IMG/VR virus record: IMGVR_UViG_2698536387_000012
Source: a virus
Taxonomy: Duplodnaviria; Heunggongvirae; Uroviricota; Caudoviricetes
Length of the DNA stretch: 19,577 nucleotides
Reading direction: 5' to 3' (one strand)
This document shows, one piece after another, positions 1 through 17,070 of the stretch. Under the pieces are notes generated by a model. It was not told the DNA's origin, searched no databases, and saw only the letters and a list, made by a program, of their open reading frames with translations. Made by a program: the position numbers and the translations under genes. The stretch's first letter is position 1. Each line of letters starts with the position of its first letter.

Positions 1-119
1 GCCCCCATGGGCACCCGCATATACTGAGCAACGGCATCAGCAACCCGCATTCGTCTCGGTGCGCGAAGGATATAACCTGAATCGGTTCGTGCTGCCTTTG
101 CGGTTTCCTGATTCAGCAT
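1..119 (-). CDS. 5' end of a gene continuing beyond the window start; by position probably the terminase large subunit
   Basis: Minus-strand ATG at 119..117 overlaps the TAA stop of the small-terminase gene by 1 nt (TAATG) and is preceded by GGAGGAG; open frame runs to position 1 (MLNQETAKAARTDSGYILRAPRR...). Identity inferred from position only. Confidence 0.4.
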   Translation of the reverse strand, partial: MLNQETAKAARTDSGYILRAPRRMRVADAVAQYMRVPMG

Positions 120-613
120 TACTCCTCCTGCTGTAATTCCTCCTCATCATCCGCACCTGCTTCAGTCACCCGCAGGGCTATCTGATCGCGCAGATCATCA
201 ATAATGGACTGAACACGGCTCACAGCGGCAGGCTGCAGACCACAGTCACGTTCCAGAATATCCGGTAATGTCTCCAGCACCTGCACGACCGCTTTTGCCC
301 AGATGGCAAACTCCCGTCTGACATCACTGGCCGGAATGAGTTGTGCCGTTTCCTGTTCGAACTTAAGACGCTCACGTTCAGACTGATACCAGGCTTTGCG
401 CTCATGTGCGTCCATTTCGCCTTCTGCAACCGGCGGTGGTAATGCCAGAAATGCCGACACAATATCAACCACCCGATAAAGCTTGAGGTTGCTTTCATGC
501 CCCCCTGCAACGGGTAGATTTTGCAGCCTTGCCGCAGCAGTCTGGCGATGTACACCTGACAGTGCCGCCAATTGACTGATATTCAGCGTCAGATTTTTTA
601 ACTCTCGATCCAT
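119..613 (-). CDS. nohA: Phage terminase small subunit (Nu1-type), 164 aa
   Basis: ORF MDRELKNLTLNISQLAALSGVHRQTAAARL... has an N-terminal HTH and overall pattern recalling lambda Nu1; GGAG 5 nt upstream of ATG at 613; cos-like site about 180 bp upstream. Symbol assigned by context, not by alignment. Confidence 0.75.
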   Translation of the reverse strand: MDRELKNLTLNISQLAALSGVHRQTAAARLQNLPVAGGHESNLKLYRVVDIVSAFLALPPPVAEGEMDAHERKAWYQSERERLKFEQETAQLIPASDVRREFAIWAKAVVQVLETLPDILERDCGLQPAAVSRVQSIIDDLRDQIALRVTEAGADDEEELQQEE

Positions 614-717
614 ACCCGCTCCAGAATGTTTTAAACATGCATCTTGCGAACGACTTTAGGCAAACGGTGTTAGTGATGAACAAAAAACAATCAAAATCGA
701 CACCACAAAAATAAAAA

Positions 718-743
718 TACTGTAATATCAATCTATTACAGTA
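718..743. repeat. Perfect 10-bp inverted repeat TACTGTAATA-N6-TATTACAGTA between the terminase gene and cos
   Basis: Read directly: tactgtaata (718-727), spacer tcaatc, tattacagta (734-743). Confidence 0.6.
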
Positions 744-775
744 GTGGTGATGACGGATGAAATTTCAAAAACTAG

Positions 776-802
776 CCTTTTTCCGCGACGCTCCCGCCCC
801 GT
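776..802 (-). other. cosN-like cohesive-end site
   Basis: Minus strand reads ACGGGGCGGGAGCGTCGCGGAAAAAGG then TTTTTGAAATTTCATCC; lambda cos as I recall it reads ACG-GGGCGGCGACCT-CGCGGGTTTTCG...TTTATGAAAATTTTCCGG. Lies at a lambda-like distance upstream of the small terminase start. Not verified by alignment. Confidence 0.5.
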
Positions 803-828
803 GGCAGGGGCCCCCACCGGGAGGACCC

Positions 829-851
829 GACAGCCTGACAGCCTGACAGCC
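829..851 (+). repeat. Tandem repeat, about 3 copies of GACAGCCT
   Basis: gacagcctgacagcctgacagcc read directly, adjacent to the cos-like site. Confidence 0.6.
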
Positions 852-987
852 GTGATGAGCATCTGATACAGCGCTTTACATAATGGCATAGGAATAATTC
901 AGAAGGACATCACAGCATGCCCACACAAATTAGTGTGAGTGTCCTGTTTCTTCCTACGCACAGGACTGACGAGCATGAGGGGAAAAT

Positions 988-1155
988 ATGCGAACCATAA
1001 ATGCCTCATCTTCAGCAATGCAACCGGCATCCGAACAGGACGATATTGTAAATTCACCTAATTACGAGGACATTGCAGTAGTTGAATTGCAGCTCTGTAT
1101 TAGCCTGACAGTGACAGAATGCGATATTGACTCTGTCACAGGTGAAATAGTTTGA
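988..1155 (+). CDS. Candidate small ORF, 55 aa (MRTINASSSAMQPASEQDDIVNSPNYEDIAVVELQLCISLTVTECDIDSVTGEIV)
   Basis: ATG at 988 preceded by GAGGGG with 5-nt spacing; below the 60-aa ORF-track cutoff. No homology evidence. Confidence 0.3.
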   Translation: MRTINASSSAMQPASEQDDIVNSPNYEDIAVVELQLCISLTVTECDIDSVTGEIV

Positions 1156-1175
1156 ATGATTAGCAGTTATGGTGC

Positions 1176-1382
1176 TCAGTCAACCACCAGGGAATAATCC
1201 TTCGAATTCTTATCGTGCTTCACCAACGCTGCCTCAATTGCCCTGAATGCTTCCAGAGACACCTGATGTTCTATACATGCAATTACAACATCCGGGTAAC
1301 TCATAGAAATGGTGCTATTAAGCATATTTTTTACACGAATCACATCCAACGAGAGTTCATCAGCAGATTGTTCTTTATTCAT
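1176..1382 (-). CDS. ynfO: Small prophage protein, YnfO/YbcW-like, 68 aa
   Basis: [23 protein letters not shown]...; ATG at 1382 with GGAG 7 nt upstream; position between nohA and ydfO matches Qin/DLP12 gene order as recalled. Confidence 0.6.
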
Positions 1383-1682
1383 TTTGTCGCTCCATGCGTT
1401 TGCTCGTCATCTAGCGGTTAAAATATTACTTCAAATCTTACTGCATAAAAGAGGAAAAGTATGAAAGTTTGAGTACATCGACCTTACATACATCTGTCGG
1501 TTGCATATCCCTCCTGGATGCCAGCAAGGCTCAATTTTGTTACGCAATCAACACTATTCATTAAAAACAGGCTTAATATTTGACATAAATCATCAACAAA
1601 ACACAAAGAGGTCAGACCAGATTGAAACAATAAACACGATAATGCTAACTACGCGCCATCGTATCACATGGAAGGTTTACCA

Positions 1683-2114
1683 ATGGCTCAGGCTGCCATT
1701 TTTAAAGAAATATTCGATCAAGTGCGTAAAGATTTAAACTGTGAATTATTTTATTCTGAGCTAAAACGTCACAATGTCTCACTTTATATTTACTATTTAG
1801 CCACAGATAATATTCACATTGTGTTAGAAAACGACAACATAGTGTTAGTAAAAGGACTCAAAAAGGTTGTAAATGTTAAATTCTCCAGAAACAAACATCT
1901 TATAGAGACCTCCTATAATAAGTTGAAATCAAAAGAAATCACATTTCAACAATACAGGGAAAATCTTGCTAAAGCAGGAGTTTTCCGATGGGTTACAAAT
2001 ATCCAGGAACACCAAAGATATTACTATGCCTTTGATAACTCATTACTATTTACTGAAAGCATCCAGAAAATTACTGAAAGCATCCAGAAAACTACACAGA
2101 TCTTACCACGCTAA
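1683..2114 (+). CDS. ydfO: YdfO-like protein (DUF1398 family as recalled), 143 aa
   Basis: ATG at 1683 preceded by GGAAGG (7-nt spacing); [30 protein letters not shown]... The track's upstream ATG at 1668 lacks an SD. Contains an in-frame 21-bp tandem duplication near the 3' end. Confidence 0.8.
2050..2091 (+). repeat. Perfect 21-bp tandem duplication (2 copies of ttactgaaagcatccagaaaa) inside ydfO
   Basis: Read directly; gives the in-frame repeat [14 protein letters not shown] in the protein. Confidence 0.9.
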
Positions 2115-2216
2115 ACCATAACGTCCGGCTTCTCTCACTCCTGAGCCGGACTGCATTGGTTTAATAAAAACCATCAACAATTGTGATTTAGATATTCGGA
2201 ACCATTCAAATATAAC

Positions 2217-2240
2217 AAAACCCCGTAAAAACGAGGTTTA
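2217..2240 (-). terminator. Weak intrinsic terminator candidate downstream of gnsB
   Basis: Minus-strand CCUCG-UUUUUA-CGGGG (one G-U wobble) followed by UUUU. Confidence 0.35.
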
Positions 2241-2265
2241 TGGATAAATTTTATTATTGAATACA

Positions 2266-2439
2266 TCAGATTAAATTAATCTTGACATCATAGCTTTCAA
2301 GACCCGTCATTTTTTCCCGTGCGGTAAACTGAATACTGGTAACTTCTTTCCCGGTCTTTTTCTTAAGTTCAATAATTTTTTTTGTTATATATTCAGAAAT
2401 ATCTGCTTCTGCTTTTGTTTTTAAGTCTTCAATATTCAT
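2266..2439 (-). CDS. gnsB: GnsB, 57 aa
   Basis: Hand translation MNIEDLKTKAEADISEYITKKIIELKKKTGKEVTSIQFTAREKMTGLESYDVKINLI; GAGG 5 nt upstream. An in-frame ATG one codon upstream (2442) is also possible. Below the ORF-track cutoff. Confidence 0.85.
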   Translation of the reverse strand: MNIEDLKTKAEADISEYITKKIIELKKKTGKEVTSIQFTAREKMTGLESYDVKINLI

Positions 2440-2610
2440 CATTTCCTCTTTTAGTCTGTTATGACTTTCCAGTTACACAGTAAGTCGATTATATGGTGCA
2501 AACGTGTAAAAGATAAGATGAAACATCGCAATAATCAACATACGATAGTCTAAATTTTACACAAACAGACAAAGAGAATTTTCCTGAATTATCAATGCAA
2601 TAGCATCAAA

Positions 2611-2766
2611 TCAACTCAAGAGCCTTATTGCTGCTTCCAGAATTTCTTCTGAAGTAACATGTCGATCCGCGGCTACATAAATGACTTTATGATCTCCGGT
2701 CAGAGATGGAAACCCTGCGGCCATTACAGTAAGGTGTGTTTTTTCGCCATTTGGATATTCACGCAT
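2611..2766 (-). CDS. ynfN: YnfN-like small protein (51 aa if started at MREYPNG...)
   Basis: Open frame extends upstream to in-frame ATGs at 2787 and 2841 and a TTG at 2883; none has a convincing SD. The 51-aa version matches the K-12 YnfN length as recalled. Start uncertain. Confidence 0.5.
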   Translation of the reverse strand: MREYPNGEKTHLTVMAAGFPSLTGDHKVIYVAADRHVTSEEILEAAIRLLS

Positions 2767-2885
2767 GATGGTGTTAACTCCAGTCATCGCTGGCACTACC
2801 ACTGCTGGTTCAGAGTTAAAAAAAACTATGATTTTTTTCATGATGTTACCGTAGTATGTGAGTATCCATCGAATAGACACCAAGC

Positions 2886-2905
2886 AAAAAAGCTCCCGAA
2901 GGAGC
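2886..2905 (-). terminator. Rho-independent terminator downstream of cspI
   Basis: Minus-strand GCUCC-UUCG-GGAGC hairpin followed by UUUUUU. Confidence 0.7.
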
Positions 2906-3112
2906 CTTCATTTTCACTTTTTTAAATCCAACGACAGACGGCTGGCATTTAAGTATTGTGAAATATTATCAAATGTAATCATCATTGATTTACAAAAGAT
3001 ACATTTTGCCCCGAAAGGATTCATGTCAGAAACATCAAAAGATGATGTTCTATACTGGGAACCATGACAACACGGGCATCTAAAGTGAATATGGTTTGTA
3101 ATATTGTCTACC

Positions 3113-3325
3113 TCAAAGCGCCACTACATGAACAGCGGCAGGACCTTTAGGTCCGTTCTCAATACCAAATTCAACTTCCTGATTCTCAGTTAATGTTTTG
3201 AAATCGTTGCTCTGAATTGCTGAGAAATGGACAAACACATCTTTGCTGCCATCTTTCGGCGTGATGAAACCAAAACCTTTTTCAGGGTTAAACCATTTCA
3301 CTAAACCAGTCATTTTGTTAGACAT
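3113..3325 (-). CDS. cspI: Cold-shock protein CspI, 70 aa
   Basis: [38 protein letters not shown]... carries the CspA-family RNP motifs (KGFGFI, VFVHF). Confidence 0.9.
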
Positions 3326-3686
3326 AATTATTACCTTTTGAAGAAATTAGCCCTTGGGCAGAATGGTCCGAAAAAAATATCAGAGAGAAAAACCAACAAG
3401 GAAATCTCAAGAGGTACAAATAATAAAATTATAACAATGACTGCTTCAGATAAATTTGTAACAAACCAGAACACCATTAACGCATGATTAACCACCCATA
3501 GCAAGGATTACTTTTGTAAAGAAAAACACAGCAATGAAAGAATAGCTTTATTTATTAATAAAACGTGTCATTCTGATTAAGACCTTTTATCTTACCCTTA
3601 AGATTTCAGGAATTTTGGCTCATGGAAGAGTCCTTTTTATTCAAATTTTACATTCCGCGATGTAAATGTTCCGATTTAATATTACC

Positions 3687-4710
<1,024 letters not shown>

Positions 4711-4714
<4 letters not shown>

Positions 4715-5022
4715 AGATATTTATGATGAGGACGCTCGTGCTTATTGGCAGGATTTTCAATCTTAAAGGAGTACTGATGCTGCAGATAAGACTCAACTTT
4801 TTCTGACAATTTTTCTGCTACTTCCAGGAAGACTTGCCGGACGCTCCTTCTGGCTGCTGCCTCATAAAACTCCAGCGCAGCTCCTTCAACACGGTCCATG
4901 GCGACATCCAGGTCAAAAATTTCACCGTCAAAGCGTTCTTTGTCCTGTAAGGCTACAGTTACCGTAACTTTATTCTCAAAATTACGGACTCCTTTCACAA
5001 CCAGTTCATAGTCTTGAGTCAT
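4711..5022 (-). CDS. ydfR: YdfR-like protein (DUF1327 as recalled), 103 aa, between holin and endolysin
   Basis: ORF MTQDYELVVKGVRNFENKVTVTVALQDKERFDGE...; AGGAG upstream; in the K-12 Qin position. Confidence 0.7.
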
Positions 5023-5026
5023 TGGA

Positions 5027-5242
5027 TTACTCTCCTCTCGCAGCCTTACGCCTGTCTTCTTTAATCTTGAAATAAAGATTTGTCAGATACGTCAGCAGGC
5101 CAAAAACCAGGCTACCCAGCACACCGATTGCAGCCCACTGTGACGGAGTTACTTTATCGAGTAACTGCAATGCCCAGAAACCAGCATTACCCGCCGATGT
5201 GCCATAGGCAACACCTGTTGTTAACTTATCCATTGATTTCAT
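5027..5242 (-). CDS. essQ: Class II holin (phage-21-type pinholin), 71 aa, with dual-start motif MKSM
   Basis: [71 protein letters not shown] closely resembles S21 as recalled; two TM segments; Met1/Met4 dual start. The track ORF extends to a TTG at 5317. Confidence 0.8.
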
Positions 5243-5461
5243 ATCCTCACCCCGATGTACACGGATGGTGCAATATGTTTGAAAAGATCGGAGTCTACGG
5301 GGTAGTTTTGACAGCACACGTTGTTCTCAACGGCGCTAAAAAAACATACACATTAAAAATGTGGGTAATTATTTTGAAAGAAAGTCATATATAAAATAAT
5401 AATACGAGAAATGTTTTCATATTTAGTGTACTGTATACGGCCATTTATACAGGAAAAGCCT

Positions 5462-5632
5462 ATGTCAGAACGTAAAAACTCAAAATCACGCCGTAATTAT
5501 CTCGTTAAATGTTCCTGCCCAAACTGCACCCAAGAGTCAGAACACAGTTTTTCAAGAGTACAAAAAGGTGCCCTTTTGATCTGCCCTCATTGCAACAAAG
5601 TATTCCAGACAAATCTTAAAGCTGTAGCCTGA
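5462..5632 (+). CDS. Small zinc-ribbon protein candidate, 56 aa
   Basis: ATG at 5462 with AGGA 7 nt upstream; MSERKNSKSRRNYLVKCSCPNCTQESEHSFSRVQKGALLICPHCNKVFQTNLKAVA has two Cys pairs (CSCPNC, CPHC). Opposite in direction to the late operon. Confidence 0.4.
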   Translation: MSERKNSKSRRNYLVKCSCPNCTQESEHSFSRVQKGALLICPHCNKVFQTNLKAVA

Positions 5633-5691
5633 TTGATTTTATTAGTAACAAGTATTTTTTATATTTTAATAATATATTTAAAGCAGATAAT

Positions 5692-5714
5692 AAAAAACCC
5701 GCCTGAGCGGGTTT
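5692..5714 (-). terminator. Intrinsic terminator (bidirectional hairpin, stronger on the minus strand)
   Basis: AAAAAA-CCCGC-CTGA-GCGGG-TTT; the minus strand has a 6-U tract after the stem. Lies downstream of cspB. Confidence 0.6.
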
Positions 5715-5995
5715 GAGATTGTGGTGCTTTTTGTGGGAGTCATCCACTTACGCACTTTGTTTTGCCATGCCAGCAGTTAGCTTCTGCTGTAAAACTATTC
5801 ATGCAGCAAACCTGCACTTCACCACAATGGTTAGCATACTTTTCCTGATTAAGATTTTGCCAAATATGCTAGCCATTGTTTCATGTATTGGACCTCCTTA
5901 TTTTTTATTAAAGAGATCCAATATTCACTACTCTGTCCGTATCTCTACTCAGGCATCAGCCTTCTTCGTTATCGTATACAGACGAGCGATGAATT

Positions 5996-6211
5996 TTAAT
6001 CAGTAATGATGACATTTGCTGCTGCAGGACCTTTAGCACCACTCTCTATAGAGAAGGTAACCTTTTGACCTTCAAATAAGGTTCGATAATTATCATTCTG
6101 AATCGCAGAAAAATGCACAAACACATCTTTACTACCATCAACAGGAGAAATAAAGCCGAAACCTTTATCAGCGTTAAACCATTTTACTAAACCAGTCATT
6201 TTATTTGACAT
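5996..6211 (-). CDS. cspB: Cold-shock protein CspB, 71 aa
   Basis: [71 protein letters not shown]; about 300-bp upstream non-coding leader typical of cspA-family genes. Confidence 0.9.
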
Positions 6212-6511
6212 TCTACATTCCTTAACTTGAGCCTTTCGGCATAAATGGTTTGCATAACAGAAACGACTTCGTACTTAATTGGAGAGACTCAAAGAAGGAA
6301 TAAGTGAATAACACCTGAAATGAGAACTGCTTTAGTAAACTACTTCGTATATCGTCTGTTCTTCAAACCGACGCAATCATTAACGCATAGTTGAACATAT
6401 GAAGCAATGTTTATTTTAGACATCCAGCCATCTTCAACCCCATCAAAAAACTATAGCTTTCTTCAGGAACGTGTGTATAGTGCGCCAAGTTATCAGTATT
6501 AAGGAATTTTT

Positions 6512-6724
6512 TTGTCCCGTAAAATGACAGGAATTGTCAAAACCTTTGACGGCAAAAGCGGCAAGGGTCTTATCACCCCATCCGATGGTCGTATCGATGT
6601 CCAGCTTCATGTTTCAGCGCTCAATCTCCGCGATGCAGAAGAAATTACCACCGGATTACGCGTGGAATTTTGCCGGATAAATGGTCTGCGTGGCCCTTCA
6701 GCTGCCAATGTTTACCTTTCATGA
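6512..6724 (+). CDS. cspF: CspA-family protein CspF-like, 70 aa
   Basis: [44 protein letters not shown]...; TTG at 6512 has AAGGAA 5 nt upstream (alternative ATG at 6524). Confidence 0.8.
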
Positions 6725-6778
6725 GCTATATTAAAGCTTTAATTTCAGGCCCCATCGGATCACACATGGAGAGTTTTT

Positions 6779-6868
6779 ATGAATAACCCCGTCTGTCTTG
6801 ATGACTGGTTGATTGGCTTTAAAAGCTTATGCTGTACTTTGGCCGTAATAGCTCTGCTAATAATATAA
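6779..6868 (+). CDS. Candidate small hydrophobic peptide, 29 aa ([29 protein letters not shown])
   Basis: ATG at 6779 with GGAGAG 5 nt upstream; one predicted TM segment. No homology evidence. Confidence 0.3.
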
Positions 6869-7016
6869 TAAGCAGACTCATTGTGTTTAGGGACATTGTA
6901 CTGGAAGAAAACATTTTAAACATCAGGCAAATAACCAAGTCACCAGCTAAATAATAAGTTAACAGACATGAGTCCCGGGATGAGATTCAACATTACCATT
7001 GCCCCATTTAAAGCAC

Positions 7017-7040
7017 AAAACCCGCTCATCAGCGGGTTTT
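7017..7040 (-). terminator. tR'-like intrinsic terminator downstream of the late promoter (bidirectional hairpin)
   Basis: AAAA-CCCGCT-CATC-AGCGGG-TTTT; about 110 nt downstream of the Q stop on the minus strand, about 300 nt downstream of cspF on the plus strand. Confidence 0.6.
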
Positions 7041-7085
7041 CTACTTTTTCTTAACGTCGGGTATACAAAGCCCATCGTTGAAAAA

Positions 7086-7114
7086 ATTTTATCCATATTT
7101 TTTGAAGAATGCAA
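7086..7114 (-). promoter_or_regulatory. PR'-like late promoter candidate (-35 TTGCAT, 17-bp spacer, -10 TAAAAT) just downstream of Q
   Basis: Minus strand reads gtTTGCATtcttcaaaaaatatggaTAAAATtttttc, about 45 nt upstream of the tR'-like hairpin. Confidence 0.4.
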
Positions 7115-7145
7115 ACATCATGTCGCCATCTTCAGCAAAAATCAT

Positions 7146-7898
7146 TTATCTCGTCACCTTCCTCAATTGCGCTTCCGCGTATGCTTCTTCCTGCCAGCAC
7201 TTTGTTACCAGTTTACCAATGACGTCCGCATACCCCTTATACCACTGATAATCGGTCAGGTCTGGTACCAGCTTCTGGACATGACGTCGTGCCAGCGTGG
7301 TCGGTAAACGACTAAACCGGTTTCCATTACAACGCCCACAAATCTTATATACCGGTACGCCATGAAACCGGGTTCTTTTTTCATCCAGAACAATCCCTTT
7401 ACCCTTACACCCTCTGCACGCTGTGCTGGCTTCGCCCTTACCATGGCAATGCTGACATAGTTCCTTCACCCATTCTTCCTTGATTACAGATTCCCCGCGT
7501 CTGTAGTGTTTCACCACTTCGCGCAATACATTATAAAATCCCGTACCTGAACAATGCTCACAGCGAGCCTTACTTGCCGCAGACCTGGAGTAATCAGCAA
7601 AGGCAAAACTCACGAGGTAAGGAATAATCTGTAACCGGATTTCTTCACTCAATTTGTTCAATGTCGGGTTATCCAGTGCCATCGCGTAATTTAGCAGGCC
7701 TTCAATCGCAAACTGAGGGTTCTGAACACCAACTTTTGCCAGAAATAAGGCCAACCCAAGTGGTGCTTTCGACTGCACCATCCCCTGCGCTGCCATTACA
7801 TCCGTAATTGTTAAACAACCGGTGCCTGTCGCTGGAGCGTCATCGCTCAATTTTGGAGATTTTGGGGAGTAATATTTTGGTAAGGCTTCAAGGTTCAT
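7146..7898 (-). CDS. quuQ: Late-gene antiterminator Q, 250 aa
   Basis: Cys/His-rich zinc-binding region (CEHCSGTG...CQHCHGKG...CRGCKGKG...CGRC); ATG at 7898 with GGAG 7 nt upstream. The track start at 7928 is a TTG. Confidence 0.85.
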   Translation of the reverse strand: MNLEALPKYYSPKSPKLSDDAPATGTGCLTITDVMAAQGMVQSKAPLGLALFLAKVGVQNPQFAIEGLLNYAMALDNPTLNKLSEEIRLQIIPYLVSFAFADYSRSAASKARCEHCSGTGFYNVLREVVKHYRRGESVIKEEWVKELCQHCHGKGEASTACRGCKGKGIVLDEKRTRFHGVPVYKICGRCNGNRFSRLPTTLARRHVQKLVPDLTDYQWYKGYADVIGKLVTKCWQEEAYAEAQLRKVTR

Positions 7899-7911
7899 GC
7901 TCGTTCTCCAC

Positions 7912-8961
7912 TTACGCCAGTACGCCAATTGCCAGCGCGCGATCGATAAAACGAAATATCAGCTCCAGTTGGGAGCCATACTTATCTTCAAATGCCACTG
8001 TATCCGTATGCAGCTCGTTGTGATGCTTTCTGCACAAAGGCAACACAAAGAGATCATGTGCTTTTGTTCCCATTCCGCCCTGCCCGTGACCAATCAGATG
8101 ATGCGGATCGTCGGCTGGCATACCGCAGCAAGCACACGGCTGTGTCTTAACCCAACGTGTGTATTTCTCCTTAACCCAGCGGCGACGTTTAGGCAGCTTC
8201 ATGAAAGATTCCGGAGACTCTGGATCAACGGTGATGCTTACCACCGTCTTTTCCTGTGGTGATTTTTGTTGCTGGTGGGCGTAAGGCAACGGTGCAAGAT
8301 TTTTTGTGCGTTGTTTCAATATGCTGGTGGCGGTCTGCTCTCCCGGTACGATGTCGCTTTCGCGGTACACCGAGCAGATTTTTTCCGCTGGTAATCCCAG
8401 CGAACGACGCGATACAGCCTCAGGTAGTGCATCCACCACCTGATTGCAGACCGCCCACCAGGATAATTCAGCCAAAGATAATTCCCGCTCCTGCGTACCG
8501 CTTATTGCGTGACGGATGACGTCAATCACCCATGCTGTCAGATTTTGTTGAGCAAGCAGCTCCAGTGATTCCGATGTCTGGTCACGCAGTTGGTTGTCGC
8601 AGTGCCAGCACAACACCATTGCGCCGGTACCATAACGGTGAATGACTGTTTCAGTGTGATGGTAATCGCCATTAGGCCACTGGCAGGATGTAACATGACG
8701 TAATAGCCAGTCGGACAATGCGCCAACGCCGCCAGCAGCACGAATCACCCGTTCGTTACTAAAAAACGGCAGCAATGTTTTGTCTTCCGCCAGCGGCTGG
8801 CGAACGGCAGGAACGACTCCGGATGGCAGATTACGCATGCTTTTTGGTTCCGGTTCCACCAGCACTCGAGGATTATGAAATATCTGTATGGATTCACGGC
8901 CCGGCTTAAGGACCACCAGCCCAAGCTCAGGCACCAGAACAGGTCTAAGTAATACCCGCAC
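7912..8961 (-). CDS. ydfU: YdfU-like protein (DUF968 as recalled), 349 aa, with C-terminal Cys/His motif
   Basis: GTG at 8961 preceded by TGGAGGT (4-nt spacing); C-terminal PCACCG...HHLIGHG...LCRKHHNELH motif. The longer track ORF starts at an upstream GTG without an SD. Confidence 0.65.
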   Translation of the reverse strand: MRVLLRPVLVPELGLVVLKPGRESIQIFHNPRVLVEPEPKSMRNLPSGVVPAVRQPLAEDKTLLPFFSNERVIRAAGGVGALSDWLLRHVTSCQWPNGDYHHTETVIHRYGTGAMVLCWHCDNQLRDQTSESLELLAQQNLTAWVIDVIRHAISGTQERELSLAELSWWAVCNQVVDALPEAVSRRSLGLPAEKICSVYRESDIVPGEQTATSILKQRTKNLAPLPYAHQQQKSPQEKTVVSITVDPESPESFMKLPKRRRWVKEKYTRWVKTQPCACCGMPADDPHHLIGHGQGGMGTKAHDLFVLPLCRKHHNELHTDTVAFEDKYGSQLELIFRFIDRALAIGVLA

Positions 8962-8962
8962 G

Positions 8963-9241
8963 TTACCTCCAGATCCGTTGCTGGAAAGTGCGGGACGCAC
9001 GTGGTGGGCGTTCGGAATAAGGCAGCCTGACAGAGATTATCCAGTGCCGATAGTCGAGACTGAGAGCTTTCTTAACCTCGAACCCGCGCCTGCGGTAAGA
9101 ATGAATCAGCCATTCGGCCTGTTCTGCAGTGCATGGAGGGTGCTGGAACCATTCAGACTTGAATGCGTGAGAATACCGCCCGTGCGTGCAGGCAAGAACG
9201 GGCGAATTATCAGAATTGTAATATTTTGCGTTGCGTGCCAT
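8963..9241 (-). CDS. Hypothetical protein, 92 aa
   Basis: ATG-initiated ORF MARNAKYYNSDNSPVLACTHGRYSHAFKSEWFQHPPC... immediately upstream of ydfU. Confidence 0.5.
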   Translation of the reverse strand: MARNAKYYNSDNSPVLACTHGRYSHAFKSEWFQHPPCTAEQAEWLIHSYRRRGFEVKKALSLDYRHWIISVRLPYSERPPRASRTFQQRIWR

Positions 9242-9307
9242 CGGTTTTCTCCGGTGGCACGGTGTTACTCAGCGGGAGTTCAGCCCCGCGCAAGATTGTA
9301 GATGAGT

Positions 9308-9559
9308 TTATTCTCCTGAAAAAGCAGAAAAGCCAGCTTTTATTCCGATCTCTTTCAATGCCTGTAATGAAGTGACAAACTCACCTTCGCGCAAGATAAA
9401 TCCGTCCGTGACCCGAGCATCCACAAAATTAATTAACGCAGCCCCATTCTTTCGCAAACACATAATGCGGTAATGACTAACAAGATTTCCATTTTCAACG
9501 CACACAGCATAGAGGCCATCTTCACAAAAAATTTTACGCAGTTCTTCGATGTTCATCAT
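9308..9559 (-). CDS. rem: Small protein, 83 aa, probably Rem
   Basis: ATG at 9559 with GGAAGGA 5 nt upstream; the length and position downstream of hokD match Rem as I recall it; sequence identity not verified. Confidence 0.55.
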   Translation of the reverse strand: MMNIEELRKIFCEDGLYAVCVENGNLVSHYRIMCLRKNGAALINFVDARVTDGFILREGEFVTSLQALKEIGIKAGFSAFSGE

Positions 9560-9680
9560 CAGAATCCTTCCGGATAATTAGCTCTCCCCTTTAAGGGACC
9601 ATCCCTCTTATCCCTGCGCGCTACTTAAGTATTTTTGATTCTATTCCGGCACCGTCCAGAACTTCAAACGCGTTGAAAAT

Positions 9681-9706
9681 AAAAACAAAAACCCGCCGAA
9701 GCGGGT
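9681..9706 (-). terminator. Rho-independent terminator of the relB-relE-hokD operon
   Basis: Minus-strand ACCCGC-UUCG-GCGGGU hairpin followed by UUUUUGUUUUUAUUUU, about 70 nt downstream of the hokD stop. Confidence 0.7.
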
Positions 9707-9775
9707 TAAGTGCGGGTGCGTTGAGGATGCCTGCCACATCAGAGGTGGCGAGGGATTTCTCCCCCGCCGGGTCTC

Positions 9776-9931
9776 TTACTCCTCAGGTTCGTAAGCTGTG
9801 AAGACAGCGACCTCCGTCTGGCCGGTTCGGATTCGTACCTCGCAGAGGTCTTTCCTCGTTACCAGTGCCGTCACTATGACGGTTAAACAGATGACGATCA
9901 GGGCGATTAACATCGCCTTTTGCTGCTTCAT
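9776..9931 (-). CDS. hokD: Hok-family type I toxin HokD (RelF), 51 aa
   Basis: Hand translation MKQQKAMLIALIVICLTVIVTALVTRKDLCEVRIRTGQTEVAVFTAYEPEE; below the ORF-track cutoff. Confidence 0.85.
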   Translation of the reverse strand: MKQQKAMLIALIVICLTVIVTALVTRKDLCEVRIRTGQTEVAVFTAYEPEE

Positions 9932-10002
9932 AGCCTGCTTCTCCTGTCAACGCAAAGCAGAAGTGTCACCTTCGGTGCGAAACAGAGATGTCATGCTTTG
10001 GT

Positions 10003-10290
10003 TCAGAGAATGCGTTTGACCGCCTCGCTATATACTTCCGAGCGTTCTCTTTTCCCAACAGAAATCACGAAAACGACAACTTTCTCGTCTATAACCTGGT
10101 ATACAAGGCGATAGCCTGAAGACCGGAGCTTAATCTTGTAACAATCAGGCATACCACGGAGCTTGTTTGCTTCAATCCGGGGTGACTCAAGTACTTCAAC
10201 CAGCTTCTTTTTCAACTGTTCACGTACCGTCGAGCCCAGCTTTCGCCATTCCTTTAGTGCCCGCTCGTCAAAATCCAGAAAATACGCCAT
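10003..10290 (-). CDS. relE: RelE mRNA-interferase toxin, 95 aa
   Basis: MAYFLDFDERALKEWRKLGSTVREQLKKKLVEVLESPRIEANKLRGMPDCYKIKLRSSGYRLVYQVIDEKVVVFVISVGKRERSEVY... Confidence 0.9.
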   Translation of the reverse strand: MAYFLDFDERALKEWRKLGSTVREQLKKKLVEVLESPRIEANKLRGMPDCYKIKLRSSGYRLVYQVIDEKVVVFVISVGKRERSEVYSEAVKRIL

Positions 10291-10529
10291 CAGAGTTCAT
10301 CCAGCGTCACACGTACTGGCTTAGGATTACGAAGCCGTTCTTTCACTATCTCCACAAGTTCAGCATCTTCATCACTCAGGAGTGTCTGTTTGAACGGCAA
10401 GCGTTCATTGTCAGCGATATACTCGAGCATGAGACGAAGCGCTTCAGAAGGAGTTACACCCATTTTTTCAAGCGCGGCGTAAGAACGCGCTTTAAGTTCA
10501 TCGTCAATACGCAGGTTAATGCTACCCAT
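10290..10529 (-). CDS. relB: RelB antitoxin, 79 aa
   Basis: MGSINLRIDDELKARSYAALEKMGVTPSEALRLMLEYIADNERLPFKQTLLSDEDAELVEIVKERLRNPKPVRVTLDEL; its stop overlaps the relE start. Confidence 0.9.
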   Translation of the reverse strand: MGSINLRIDDELKARSYAALEKMGVTPSEALRLMLEYIADNERLPFKQTLLSDEDAELVEIVKERLRNPKPVRVTLDEL

Positions 10530-10540
10530 GTCTTACACCT

Positions 10541-10593
10541 CTTGTAATTACAAATGTCATTACAAGTATCGCACTACAACATGCTTAGGGCAA
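10541..10593 (-). promoter_or_regulatory. relBE promoter (-35 TTGCCC, -10 GATACT) with relO operator palindromes
   Basis: Minus strand reads TTGCCC-N17-GATACT-TGTAATGACATTTGTAATTACAAG-AGAGGTG-N5-ATG; contains the perfect palindrome TTGTAATTACAA. Confidence 0.7.
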
Positions 10594-10859
10594 GTCACGA
10601 AGGAAGTCAGAAAGTAGTCGTAAGAACGGTGATCACTGTCCGCTTTGTGCCAGGAGCAGCCATTGCTAAGTCCATCCTGTATTGTGCAGGTCAGCTCGCT
10701 TTTAAAGAGTCCGGCCATCATCTTACTGGTACAGACACCATATACTTTGTGACGGTCAGGCTACATATGCACAACTCAACTTATTCATCTATTTTTTGCT
10801 TTAGCATGTCAGTGTTGCTTTCTCGTCGGCGGGTGAGCGGTGACCTGACCTGTCGATAA
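10554..10859 (+). CDS. ydfV: Doubtful ORF (ydfV position in K-12) overlapping the relBE operator, 101 aa
   Basis: ATG lies inside the relO palindrome; no SD; Cys/His/Ser-rich low-complexity translation. Listed only because K-12 annotates an ORF of this length here. Confidence 0.25.
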   Translation: MSLQVSHYNMLRASHEGSQKVVVRTVITVRFVPGAAIAKSILYCAGQLAFKESGHHLTGTDTIYFVTVRLHMHNSTYSSIFCFSMSVLLSRRRVSGDLTCR

Positions 10860-11011
10860 AGGAACGTAGCACGTTTTATGCAACACCCGCATGCGGCAGA
10901 AAATTATTGCCGAACGTTTACCCCTGTCAACAAGCTTTACTTTCTGAGGCGCGCCAGCCCGCGAGGAAAACAATCTGAACATCAAACAATTAATGACACA
11001 AGAAATACGAT

Positions 11012-11038
11012 TAAAGATTTTTTTGTGCATGCCGATAG
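11012..11038 (+). promoter_or_regulatory. Sigma-28 (FliA) promoter of flxA: TAAAGATT-N11-GCCGATAG
   Basis: Near-consensus match to TAAAGTTT-N11-GCCGATAA, 24 nt upstream of the flxA ATG. Confidence 0.7.
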
Positions 11039-11061
11039 TGCTTTTTTAAAAGGAGAAATCT

Positions 11062-11394
11062 ATGTCTGTCACAATTCAGGGAAATACCTCAACCGTTATT
11101 TCAAACAACTCCGCCCCGGAAGGAACATCAGAAATAGCCAAAATCACAAGACAAATTCAGGTGCTGACTGAAAAGCTTGGGAAAATCTCATCGGAAGAGG
11201 GGATGACGACACAGCAGAAAAAAGAAATGGCTGCATTGGTACAGAAGCAAATTGAAAGCCTCAGGGCTCAACTGGAGCAGTTGTTAAGGCAGCAGGCAGA
11301 GAAAAAGAATAAAGACGCGACAGTTCAGCCTGATAAAAAAGAAGAGAAAAAAGACGATACAAATACCGCTGGCACCATTGATATTTACGTCTAA
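11062..11394 (+). CDS. flxA: FlxA, 110 aa
   Basis: MSVTIQGNTSTVISNNSAPEGTSEIAKITRQIQVLTEKLGK...; AGGAG 6 nt upstream. Confidence 0.9.
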   Translation: MSVTIQGNTSTVISNNSAPEGTSEIAKITRQIQVLTEKLGKISSEEGMTTQQKKEMAALVQKQIESLRAQLEQLLRQQAEKKNKDATVQPDKKEEKKDDTNTAGTIDIYV

Positions 11395-11408
11395 GTGACA
11401 GCCGTATT

Positions 11409-11431
11409 GTGGCCCTCATCGGGCCACTTTT
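11409..11431 (+). terminator. Rho-independent terminator of flxA
   Basis: GTGGCCC-TCATC-GGGCCAC followed by TTTT. Confidence 0.7.
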
Positions 11432-11597
11432 CGCCATCAGCCTTTTCTTTAAAGACATATTATCTTTGTATCATTTCTGATAGTTAACATTACAAGATAT
11501 AAGTAATGGACGCACTCCCAATTAGTCTATTTAAATCGCCACGAGTTTAACTGACAACCCATGATCAATTATGAATTGCAACTATTTCTGTAGTCAC

Positions 11598-13230
11598 TTT
11601 TGTGGGGACAGTCCACAAAACTGCCAACTTCCGCTTCTTGCTCTTAGCGGACATTAGCATAGGCTATTTACCATAACGCCTCATTACGCGCACCGCCCAG
11701 ACTGACTCAGCGCGTTTCTGGCATATCCCCGGTAAAACAAGTAACAAACCACCCGAAAATGAACACCAGAAACGCGACTTAAGAATCTACCCTATGAATG
11801 GATATGCACTCAACCGAATCGATCTTGGTTTCAATCTATTTTATCGGGATCAGGCTTCTTTTTAGGTAACTTCGGGGGCTTAACTTGCTGATGACTTTGC
11901 GTTCGGCGCGTAAGCCAGGGATGGTCAGCTTTAGATTTAACATAGTATTTTGAGCGTAAATCAATACGGGCATTATCCACTCGTTCATGGACACTCTTTT
12001 CATCATCCAGTGGTATAGGCTCCGGGCCATCAACATACTTTTCCCAGCCCAGCGCTTTCCCGTCATACAGAACGTTAATTTCACCGTCAAAGTTCTCACA
12101 TACAGTAACAACCGAATGCCTAAGTCGATATCCCCGGCCCTCACTGCGTACCTGAAACGCACTGCTTTTGTACTGGAAAGTGAGATTTTTAGACAGAACG
12201 CGCTTCGCCTGTAGGCTGAAGATATAACCCAGTTCCTCTTCAGAATGGTGCACATCAAGATGAGCATTATCAGTAGTACGAGGCGACGTAGCGAACCGGT
12301 TGTTATAGGCTTCAATAAAGGTCGGCAACCATGCATTTGCTGTTTCAATATCACTGATATTCTGAAGCCGCATTTCTTTGACCAGCCTGTCCTGTAGTGT
12401 CTGATTGGCGCGCTCTACCCGCCCTTTTGCCTGCGGGCTGTTGGCATGGATTGGCTCGATGCCCAGTGTCTTTATCGCACGAGTGAACTGGGTCAGCTCA
12501 CCTTCCCGCTCTGGGTTATTTACCCTGAATATACTGTGTCTATCAGAGTAGAGAGCGAGCGGTACGCCATGATCATTAAGGTAACCCCGGAGGGTTTCCA
12601 TGTAAGCCCGGGTTGTTTCAGCAGGCACAAAACGCAACGCCATCAACGCACTGGTGGCATCATCAATGAAAACGATCAGTGTACATCTGGGGCCTCGATT
12701 TTCAAACCAGTCATGAGGTGAGCCATCAATCTGGATCAGTTCACCGTAAGATGGTCGTCGCATGCGGCGTTGATATATACGGGCAATTTTACGACGGCGT
12801 TCACGCCATAACCCCTCTTCTATCATCCACTTTCTGAGAGTTTCAACGGATAAAGATAAACCGTGTATCTCGCGCAATTTTTCGCACGCAAACGTAGGTC
12901 CAAAATCAGCGTAACGGCCTTTGAGGAGTGAAATTACTGTTGCTCTGAATTCAGTAGAAAAGGAATTATTAGGACGCTTTCCACGTCGGTGGGAAACCAG
13001 ACCAGAAGGCCCTTCATTTCTATACCGTTGCACCAGACGTTTAACCTGCCGAATAGAAATGCCAATGCGTGCCGCAGCTTGTTCCTGAGTAATATGTCGA
13101 TTAATTGACTCCTGAATAATCTGAAGTCGGTGGAGTTCCTTATGACTCATCGTAACAGTCTCTTTGATCATGAAAAATCCCCCAGAGAATTGTCTGGGGA
13201 CATTTTAGAATGGTTCAAAGGGGACATTAC
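11598..13230 (-). mobile_element. Insertion sequence carrying the transposase; boundaries are guesses
   Basis: I could not find terminal inverted repeats or target duplications. Bounds are bracketed by hairpins at 11598-11620 (TTTTGTGG-N7-CCACAAAA) and 13180-13199 (CCCCAGA-N6-TCTGGGG) and by repeated GGGGACA motifs. Confidence 0.25.
11831..13171 (-). CDS. DDE transposase with N-terminal HTH and rve/integrase-core domain (IS481/ISNCY-like), 446 aa
   Basis: N-terminal HTH (ITQEQAAARIGISIRQVKRLVQRY), catalytic core (IQIDGSPHDW...IVFIDDATS...LYSDRHSIF...KGRVERANQTL). The family call is approximate. Confidence 0.8.
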   Translation of the reverse strand: MIKETVTMSHKELHRLQIIQESINRHITQEQAAARIGISIRQVKRLVQRYRNEGPSGLVSHRRGKRPNNSFSTEFRATVISLLKGRYADFGPTFACEKLREIHGLSLSVETLRKWMIEEGLWRERRRKIARIYQRRMRRPSYGELIQIDGSPHDWFENRGPRCTLIVFIDDATSALMALRFVPAETTRAYMETLRGYLNDHGVPLALYSDRHSIFRVNNPEREGELTQFTRAIKTLGIEPIHANSPQAKGRVERANQTLQDRLVKEMRLQNISDIETANAWLPTFIEAYNNRFATSPRTTDNAHLDVHHSEEELGYIFSLQAKRVLSKNLTFQYKSSAFQVRSEGRGYRLRHSVVTVCENFDGEINVLYDGKALGWEKYVDGPEPIPLDDEKSVHERVDNARIDLRSKYYVKSKADHPWLTRRTQSHQQVKPPKLPKKKPDPDKID

Positions 13231-17012: not shown

Positions 17013-17070
17013 TTTCTGGTGACGTTTGGCGGTATCAGTTTTACTCCGTGACTGCTCTGCCGCCCTTTTT
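17013..17070 (+). ncRNA. dicF: DicF small RNA (cell-division inhibitor sRNA)
   Basis: Matches DicF as I recall it: UUUCUGGUGACGUUUGGCGGUAUCAGUUUUACUCCGUGACUGCUCUGCCGCCCUUUUU; ends in a terminator-like stem plus U-tract; sits upstream of dicB. Confidence 0.85.

Follow-up and report, generated by a model that had tools for sequence, protein, structure and literature searches.

A probable lambda-type cos site, apparently intact, in an E. coli prophage at the Qin position with DUF1441 and gpA-type terminase genes

The minus strand of the window (the whole 19,577-bp stretch of DNA analysed here) very probably carries, from position 828 down to 668, the cos site of a lambda-like prophage. The site appears to be ordinary and intact, and it lies in a prophage at the Qin position that encodes a large terminase subunit of the gpA type (TerL) and a small subunit of the DUF1441 family (TerS). 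The kind of site is already known; its novelty is low, and none of its features is new in kind. We applied the Feiss laboratory's definition of a lambda-like cos (PMC4669245, PMC9026076) to the sequence only, and the minus strand presents the full lambda-type layout, namely: cosQ, cosN, an I2-like segment of A/T tracts, cosB and then the TerS gene (Table 1). An earlier reading of this DNA (hereafter the original prediction) had proposed that the minus strand resembles the lambda cos junction, and this is borne out: from position 802 onward the strand reads ACGGGGCGGGAGCGTCGCGG...TTTTTGAAATTTCATCC, and lambda counterparts can be aligned to cosQ, cosN, the flanking CG pairs and the I2-like segment. 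The distance from the first base of the predicted cohesive end (799) to the TerS ATG (613-611) is 186 nt, close to the originally estimated 180 bp upstream of the small-terminase start and to the 190 nt found in lambda. The evidence for this assignment consists of sequence homology, the termini of deposited records, co-variation and conservation, from which we infer protein binding, nick positions and activity in the strain.

Table 1. Features of the cos region and the adjoining terminase genes, listed in the direction of the minus strand.
Feature	Position in window	Strand	Basis and remarks
Tandem octamer GACAGCCT (minus strand: GGCTGTCA), 2.9 copies, 100% match	829-851	-	Tandem Repeats Finder
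cosQ heptamer GGGTCCT, packaging-termination signal	822-828	-	Identical to lambda 48473-48479
cosN, CG/GGGCGGGAGCGT/CG	786-801	-	Record termini and comparison with lambda
I2-like spacer AAAAAGGCTAGTTTTTGAAATTTCATCC, poly-dA and poly-dT tracts	755-782	-	Aligns with lambda bp 18-45
R3-like candidate TerS site GTCATCACCACTAC	741-754 (+46 to +59 from left end)	-	Repeat script; conserved in type A
Perfect palindrome TACTGTAATA-N6-TATTACAGTA	718-743		Inverted-repeat search
IHF core consensus TATCAATCTATTA (WATCAANNNNTTR), predicted equivalent of lambda I1	726-738	+	Sole exact match in the 19,577-bp window
A-tract AAAAATAAAAA	707-717	+	Direct reading; 8 bp upstream of the IHF core; conserved in type A
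R2-like candidate TerS site GTGGTGTCGATT (reverse complement AATCGACACCAC), inverted relative to R3	695-706	-	Repeat script and conservation
R1-like candidate TerS site GTTCATCACTAACA, in the orientation of R3	668-681	-	Repeat script and conservation
TerS, 164 aa, Pfam DUF1441, N-terminal HTH	119-613	-	Pfam 2.7e-41
TerL, first 39 codons	1-119	-	Start overlaps the TerS stop (TAATG, 119-121; 1-nt overlap)

By sequence comparison, the likeness to lambda is one of homology and not of chance; BLAST against phage records matches the region in 36 of them. Alignment of the window with lambda gives 63% identity over the stretch from cosQ to I2; the cosB sequences are unrelated, a forced alignment giving 42% identity. 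At a coverage of at least 80%, the 217-bp cos is found in 1,467 of 5,426 complete E. coli genomes (about a quarter); a single genome has as many as seven copies, and none of these genomes has it annotated. A scan for promoters and terminators around the cos gave nothing beyond the chance level. Both halves of the site are also found in viable phages: the cosQ side (99.4% identity) in Tritos, which makes plaques and virions (PMC9928086), and the cosN-cosB-TerS side in mEp460, phi458 and Ayreon.

The cosQ heptamer, an element described as highly conserved by the Feiss laboratory (PMC4669245), starts 29 nt upstream of the top-strand nick, compared to 30 nt in lambda. An exact-match scan of IMG/VR with GGGGCGGGAGCGTCGCGG returned at least 120 loci. 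Among the matches listed that share the same cosN, cosQ is found at the same offset in 38 of 44 distinct upstream sequences and is shifted by 1 nt in most of the others, and the homology between differing upstream contexts starts precisely at the 5′ edge of GGGTCCT. The original prediction had overlooked cosQ, which is the actual conserved element beside the octamer repeat.

The octamer repeat itself adjoins cosQ without a spacer. It had been described as three copies; the repeat is real, but the third copy is incomplete, being short of its final base (GACAGCCg). Its contact with cosQ, the recurrence of a two-copy form at many loci and the presence of the same three copies in the viable phage Tritos could be taken to mean that GACAGCCT is a working part of the cos, such as a protein-binding array acting together with cosQ or an extension of the termination signal. 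We consider such a role very improbable, as the copy number ranges from 0 to 3, the same cosQ and cosN stand behind several differing upstream sequences without the octamer, and lambda has no such repeat. Of the loci with the same cosN, most have two imperfect copies, only a few have three, and several upstream contexts have none; among the matches listed, the three-copy form is confined to the window's lineage and Tritos. The octamer repeat behaves as a variable, slippage-prone flank that the cos would not need.

Within cosN, the predicted 12-nt 5′ cohesive end runs from window position 799 to 788, with predicted nicks at 800/799 on the minus strand and at 788/787 on the plus strand. This end shares 8 of 12 positions with that of lambda, bp 1-6 included; the differences are found solely at bp 7, 8, 9 and 11, and the CG dinucleotides bordering both predicted nicks are conserved. 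The two-fold symmetry of the 16-bp cosN extends to 8 of 16 positions, compared to 10 of 16 in lambda. Taken as sequence changes, the differences fit the published pattern of natural variation in the lambda-like group, where bp 7-12 vary (positions 9 and 12 in N15; 8, 9 and 11 in Gifsy-1), against a conserved cosQ and conserved flanking CG pairs (PMC4669245). The differences in the N15 end were reproduced by our own sequence comparison.

Two deposited phage genomes break at the predicted junction. The Tritos record (OV696610) terminates at window position 800 with ...CCTGCCACG, and the cdtI record (AB285204) starts at window position 799 with GGGCGGGAGCGTCGCGGAAAAAGGCTAGTTTTT, which is identical to the window and contains the same 12-mer; the break has the layout of lambda (...GGTTACG / GGGCGGCGACCTCGCGGG). 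These record ends support the predicted junction, although both may have been set by analogy with lambda. No physical end mapping of this cos allele was found in the literature searched, and none is described in the Tritos paper (PMC9928086); a literature search with the 12-mer end and its reverse complement yielded nothing relevant. Past cosN, AAAAAGGCTAGTTTTTGAAATTT aligns with lambda I2 from +18 to about +40/+45, in agreement with I2 as an AT-rich segment at bp ~18-50 (definition in PMC4856287).

As originally proposed, the site lies upstream of a coupled pair of terminase genes, the stop of TerS and the start of TerL being overlapped (Table 1). The partial gene downstream is indeed a large terminase of the lambda gpA family: in the 100%-identical genome NZ_CP038412 it is a full-length CDS of 700 aa with matches to GpA_ATPase (1.7e-71) and GpA_nuclease (1.5e-85). 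TerS belongs to PHROG 141, ‘terminase small subunit’ (7e-74), with a secondary match to phrog_57 (8e-10); lambda Nu1 is a member of phrog_57 and shows the reciprocal match to phrog_141 (6e-8). The only Pfam model matched by TerS is DUF1441, and not Phage_Nu1 (PF07471), which lambda Nu1 matches at 2.5e-100. When the DUF1441 alignment is compared to Nu1 using hhalign, residues 9-59 fall on the winged-helix domain, in register but weakly (probability 9%). A remote relationship between TerS and lambda Nu1 is supported by the reciprocal PHROG cross-matches. Searches with TerS gave no meaningful match among PDB sequences and no match in NCBIfam, where lambda Nu1 has none either. Phages Ayreon, phi458 and 569R4 encode a TerS with 100% identity to it, and mEp460 one with 99.4%.

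Two E. coli strains, 493/89 (O157) and C3, carry a prophage with 100% identity to the window, located beside rspB, which is the Qin position. This source prophage encodes a full head and tail module, with TerS, TerL, a portal, a protease-capsid fusion and complete tail genes, none of them flagged as a pseudogene; its early region contains a truncated IS and a truncated ydfB. The latter damage raises the alternative that the site is an inactive relic, i.e. a cos-like sequence in a prophage as cryptic as K-12 Qin, where nothing is cut or packaged. In its favour, the prophage occupies the Qin locus, window positions 1605-12015 are 98.9% identical to K-12 Qin, and K-12 Qin shows that a sequence-perfect cos can outlast its terminase. 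We nevertheless think it quite unlikely that the site is a relic, given that TerS, the 700-aa TerL, the portal, the protease-capsid fusion and all the tail genes are annotated as intact. Compared with the cos of phi458, only 7 of ~190 positions differ, cosQ, cosN, the IHF core and the R cores being free of changes, and the identical TerS of Ayreon is that of a plaque-forming phage. An apparently intact cos is the reading that we retain.

Further insight comes from the comparison of cosB across the IMG/VR loci. Among the at least 120 matches listed, all share about 34 bp after the nick, the I2-like segment being invariant up to about +34, and then divide into three main types of cosB. Each type pairs one-to-one with a TerS N-terminal domain: type A, that of the window, at 58 of the loci listed, type B (cdtI and Tritos) at 44, and type C at 17. 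Between types A and C, the TerS proteins have the same C-terminal ~100 aa, and all their differences fall in the HTH domain formed by the N-terminal ~60 aa; therefore, the DNA-binding domain and cosB would travel together, while the part that faces TerL is constant. By analogy, this pairing is the packaging-specificity logic of lambda and 21, here with a DUF1441 TerS encoded directly downstream of a lambda-like cosN and with cosB co-varying with the TerS N-terminal domain.

The perfect 10-bp inverted repeat that had been reported at 718-743 is present as described. It is not a chance product of its AT-rich context, because a perfect inverted repeat of the same size arises with a probability of 0.0013 in shuffles of the local 200 bp, and the whole window contains three such repeats compared to 0.28 expected. 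On the basis of its sequence and position, the palindrome is most likely the region equivalent to I1, a predicted bending site for IHF, and not a separate novelty. The IHF core at its centre sits between inverted R-like repeats, at the position of I1 in lambda, and together with the A-tract it has the same geometry as the H' site of lambda attP (A-tract, 8 bp, 13-bp core), which we verified in the lambda sequence. Among the matches listed, a perfect IHF core lies at this place in 38 of the 39 distinct type-A sequences and all 21 of type B, despite the differing DNA-binding domains of their TerS proteins; type C has a one-mismatch version and no perfect core. Of the four N bases that the IHF consensus leaves unspecified, two rank among the most variable positions of type-A cosB.

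The original prediction had instead implied that the palindrome is the site bound by the small terminase, which is probably wrong, the flanking R-like repeats being better candidates. In its fullest form, this alternative would have an HTH dimer of TerS recognize the arms of the family-level repeat, ACTGTAAT-N8-ATTACAGT, with no role for IHF. The arms are specific to cosB type A and pair solely with the type-A DNA-binding domain, each arm position is 87-100% conserved among the 39 distinct type-A sequences, the palindrome is non-random in shuffles, and the N-terminal HTH of TerS aligns in register with the winged helix of Nu1. We regard direct recognition of this kind as unlikely, in view of the perfect IHF consensus at the centre of the palindrome, with its A-tract at canonical spacing, and the same core at the same position in type B, whose TerS DNA-binding domain is different. 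Furthermore, the left arm in 569R4 is degenerate (ATTATAAT) despite a 100%-identical TerS, 1720a-02 retains the IHF core and the R-like elements but not the arms, and in lambda-like phages the TerS sites flank the IHF site and do not coincide with it (PMC9026076, PMC4669245). All 10 palindrome pairs are kept in only 5 of the 39 distinct type-A sequences among the matches listed, and the arms are best read as a lineage-specific feature of what is most likely an I1-like region. The outer ACTG/CAGT of the arms is conserved within type A beyond the needs of the IHF consensus and is unaccounted for by the IHF-site model; it may be contacted directly by TerS.

A hairpin or cruciform was also considered for the palindrome. 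Single-strand folding is strong (z = -5), and in the folded strand the R2-like site pairs with the CACCAC of R3. However, selection for pairing is rejected because the arm changes in the 39 distinct type-A sequences are all one-sided, with none being compensatory.

The likeliest binding sites for TerS are the R-like elements that flank the predicted IHF site. In lambda-like phages, cosB is ordered R3-I1-R2-R1; R3 lies near bp 50, and R2 is inverted (PMC9026076). A repeat script that recovers R3(+), R2(-) and R1(+) of lambda returned, in the window, TCATCACCAC at +47 (+), TCGACACCAC at +94 (-) and TCATCACTAA at +121 (+). This forward-inverted-forward triplet has the right order, orientation and position, but 13% of shuffles yield one; it is not significant alone and was dropped as independent evidence. 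Support for the triplet comes from its conservation and from relatives that show clearer equivalents. In Fels-1, VT1-Sakai and LLS, GTCATCATCATCATG at +45 to +47 is followed by an IHF-like core, an inverted GATGATGAT and a direct TCATCATC, and Gifsy-2 carries GTCAGCACTGAA, TTCAGTGTCGAA (inverted) and TTCGACACTGAA. An element of the form GTCATCAYCAY is present at +45 to +47 in LLS, VT1-Sakai, Fels-1, 1720a-02, mEp460 and phi458; inverted R2 counterparts are found in Fels-1, VT1-Sakai and Gifsy-2; and TTGTTCRWCAYC is conserved at the R1 position in types A and C as well as in Fels-1, VT1-Sakai, 1720a-02 and Gifsy-2.

By analogy with lambda, the site would work as follows. TerS dimers would occupy the R-like repeats of cosB (R3 at ~+46, the inverted R2 at ~+94 and R1 at ~+119), and host IHF would bend the DNA between R3 and R2, at the A-tract and the TATCAATCTATTA core that forms the centre of the palindrome. 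TerL would thereby be anchored and would nick cosN at positions 12 bp apart, generating 5′-GGGCGGGAGCGT ends. Packaging would then run toward the terminase genes and stop at the next cos, which would be recognized through cosQ (GGGTCCT) and cosN.

A more far-reaching proposal, to which we give little weight, is that types A, B and C represent three natural packaging-specificity classes built on a single cosQ-cosN-I2 core and a shared TerS C-terminal domain, such that termination and initiation could occur across prophages; the type-A palindrome could then be a composite site for TerS and IHF, a layout undescribed for lambda. As a single E. coli genome contains up to seven copies of this cos, the terminase of one prophage could start or terminate on the cos of another. 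If true, defective prophages and the adjacent chromosome could be mobilised by the terminase of a resident prophage.

The importance of the site lies mainly in annotation and housekeeping. Once located, it defines where the genomes in a large group of lambdoid phages and prophages truly end, those associated with Stx and Cdt included, and it exposes errors in deposited records, such as the interrupted cosN of Ayreon and several records that were opened at arbitrary points. In addition, the swapping of the N-terminal domains of type-A and type-C TerS together with cosB is a natural counterpart to the lambda/21 specificity, for a family that Pfam lists as being of unknown function.

Among known systems, lambda shares with the window an identical cosQ, a 12-nt 5′-GGGCGG... 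end with CG on both flanks, an I2-like A/T-tract spacer, an IHF site (predicted here) between inverted R-like repeats, a TerL of the gpA family, and overlapping TerS and TerL genes. It differs in a spacing from cosQ to the nick that is 1 bp longer, in bp 7, 8, 9 and 11 of the end, in an unrelated cosB sequence, and in having a TerS of the Phage_Nu1 family, of which the DUF1441 protein is a remote relative.

The type-B phages cdtI and Tritos have a DUF1441 TerS and are identical to the window in cosQ, cosN and the first ~34 bp past the nick, and the right end of Tritos matches the window with 99.4% identity across 161 bp, the three-copy octamer included. Beyond +34, however, their cosB diverges completely, and their TerS has a different N-terminal domain (41% identity overall). 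The type-A phages mEp460, phi458 and Ayreon share the palindrome region, the IHF core and the R-like repeats, with TerS proteins that are 99.4-100% identical. Of these, mEp460 has a G at position 12 of the end, one mismatch in the palindrome and an altered R1, whereas phi458 has another context upstream of cosQ, without the octamer. Ayreon was isolated on K-12, and its record is disrupted inside cosN, probably as an artefact of assembly.

A wider group, comprising Gifsy-2, Fels-1, VT1-Sakai, mEp213 and LLS (whose annotated 12-nt end is GGGCGGCGCGCT), also combines a DUF1441 TerS with a gpA-type TerL and has an R3-like element at ~45-47 bp from the end; behind it come an IHF-like core, then R2 in inverted and R1 in direct orientation. 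These phages differ from the window in their R types (CATCATCAT or TCGACACTG) and in the end's right half, and they have no palindrome; in Fels-1 and Gifsy-2, GGTACTC takes the place of cosQ.

Finally, K-12 Qin occupies the same chromosomal locus, but its 98.9% identity to the window starts only at position 1605. Its cos is an almost exact copy of that of lambda (GGGTCCT, GGGCGGCGACCT and the lambda R sites) and lies upstream of nohA, a remnant of the Nu1 type that runs into tail-fibre genes, TerL and the head genes being missing. The original prediction suggested that the packaging module of the window is less decayed than that of K-12 Qin. This stands as far as the genes are concerned, which are far more complete here, but the integrity of the cos makes no difference between the two, the Qin cos being intact in sequence and the modules being of differing types. 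The gene content of the Qin-position prophage suggests that, unlike K-12 Qin, it retains a usable packaging module.

TerS types A and C share an identical C-terminal region of ~100 aa, and their differences are confined to the N-terminal ~60-aa HTH domain. Between these two types, the HTH domain and cosB are exchanged together, such that the pair represents a natural domain swap useful for studies of packaging specificity. A single E. coli genome can hold as many as 7 copies of the cos seen in the window, with 2 in strain 493/89 (NZ_CP038412.1) and 3 in strain C3; packaging signals are therefore common to co-resident prophages.

In the record of phage Ayreon (MF807953; compared as L134, 44059-44708), cosN is split by ~175 bp (...CCACGGGG / insert / GTGGAAAAAGGCTAG...). 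The insert, which is annotated in the record as 'putative late gene regulator', includes a second copy of part of the TerS gene; it probably arose through misassembly at the cohesive ends. The mEp460 record (JQ182728) starts at the TerS gene and not at cos. At the end of the record, position 12 of the predicted cohesive end is G (GGGCGGGAGCGG), and the candidate R1-like element is also changed (TCGCCACTAA).

Across the whole window, there are three perfect inverted repeats whose arms measure 10 bp or more, namely the cos palindrome and the two listed below, compared with 0.28 expected from shuffling. The two cspA thermoregulator leaders and DicF are as expected for a Qin-type prophage. In addition, ydfB, located near the ISEsa1-family pseudogene, is truncated as well, and the two truncations may influence the inducibility of the prophage.

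Positions of features in the window and in compared sequences
Feature	Location	Strand	Source
TerS type A	window 122-613	-	
TerS type C	L127 (type C sequence) 1035-1523		
cspA thermoregulator leaders (two, for cspI and cspB)	window 3086-3470, 5980-6372	-, -	Rfam
Perfect inverted repeats, spacers 4 and 9 nt	window 7017 and 16746		
Truncated ISEsa1-family transposase pseudogene, prophage early region	window 12101-13171 (compared sequence L006, 32101-33171)		
DicF sRNA	window 17014-17065	+	Rfam
K-12 Qin cos: cosQ, GGGCGGCGACCT, R3-I1-R2-R1	L133 (MG1655 Qin) 6340-6600	-	

The Qin prophage of K-12 MG1655 still carries a near-exact lambda cos 5′ of nohA, despite the loss of the genes for the large terminase and the head. 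Among lambda-like phages, cosQ is highly conserved according to the Feiss lab (PMC4669245) and is reported as invariant. At this position upstream of cosN, lambda and the E. coli relatives have GGGTCCT, whereas the Salmonella phages Fels-1 (L128) and Gifsy-2 (L138) have GGTACTC.
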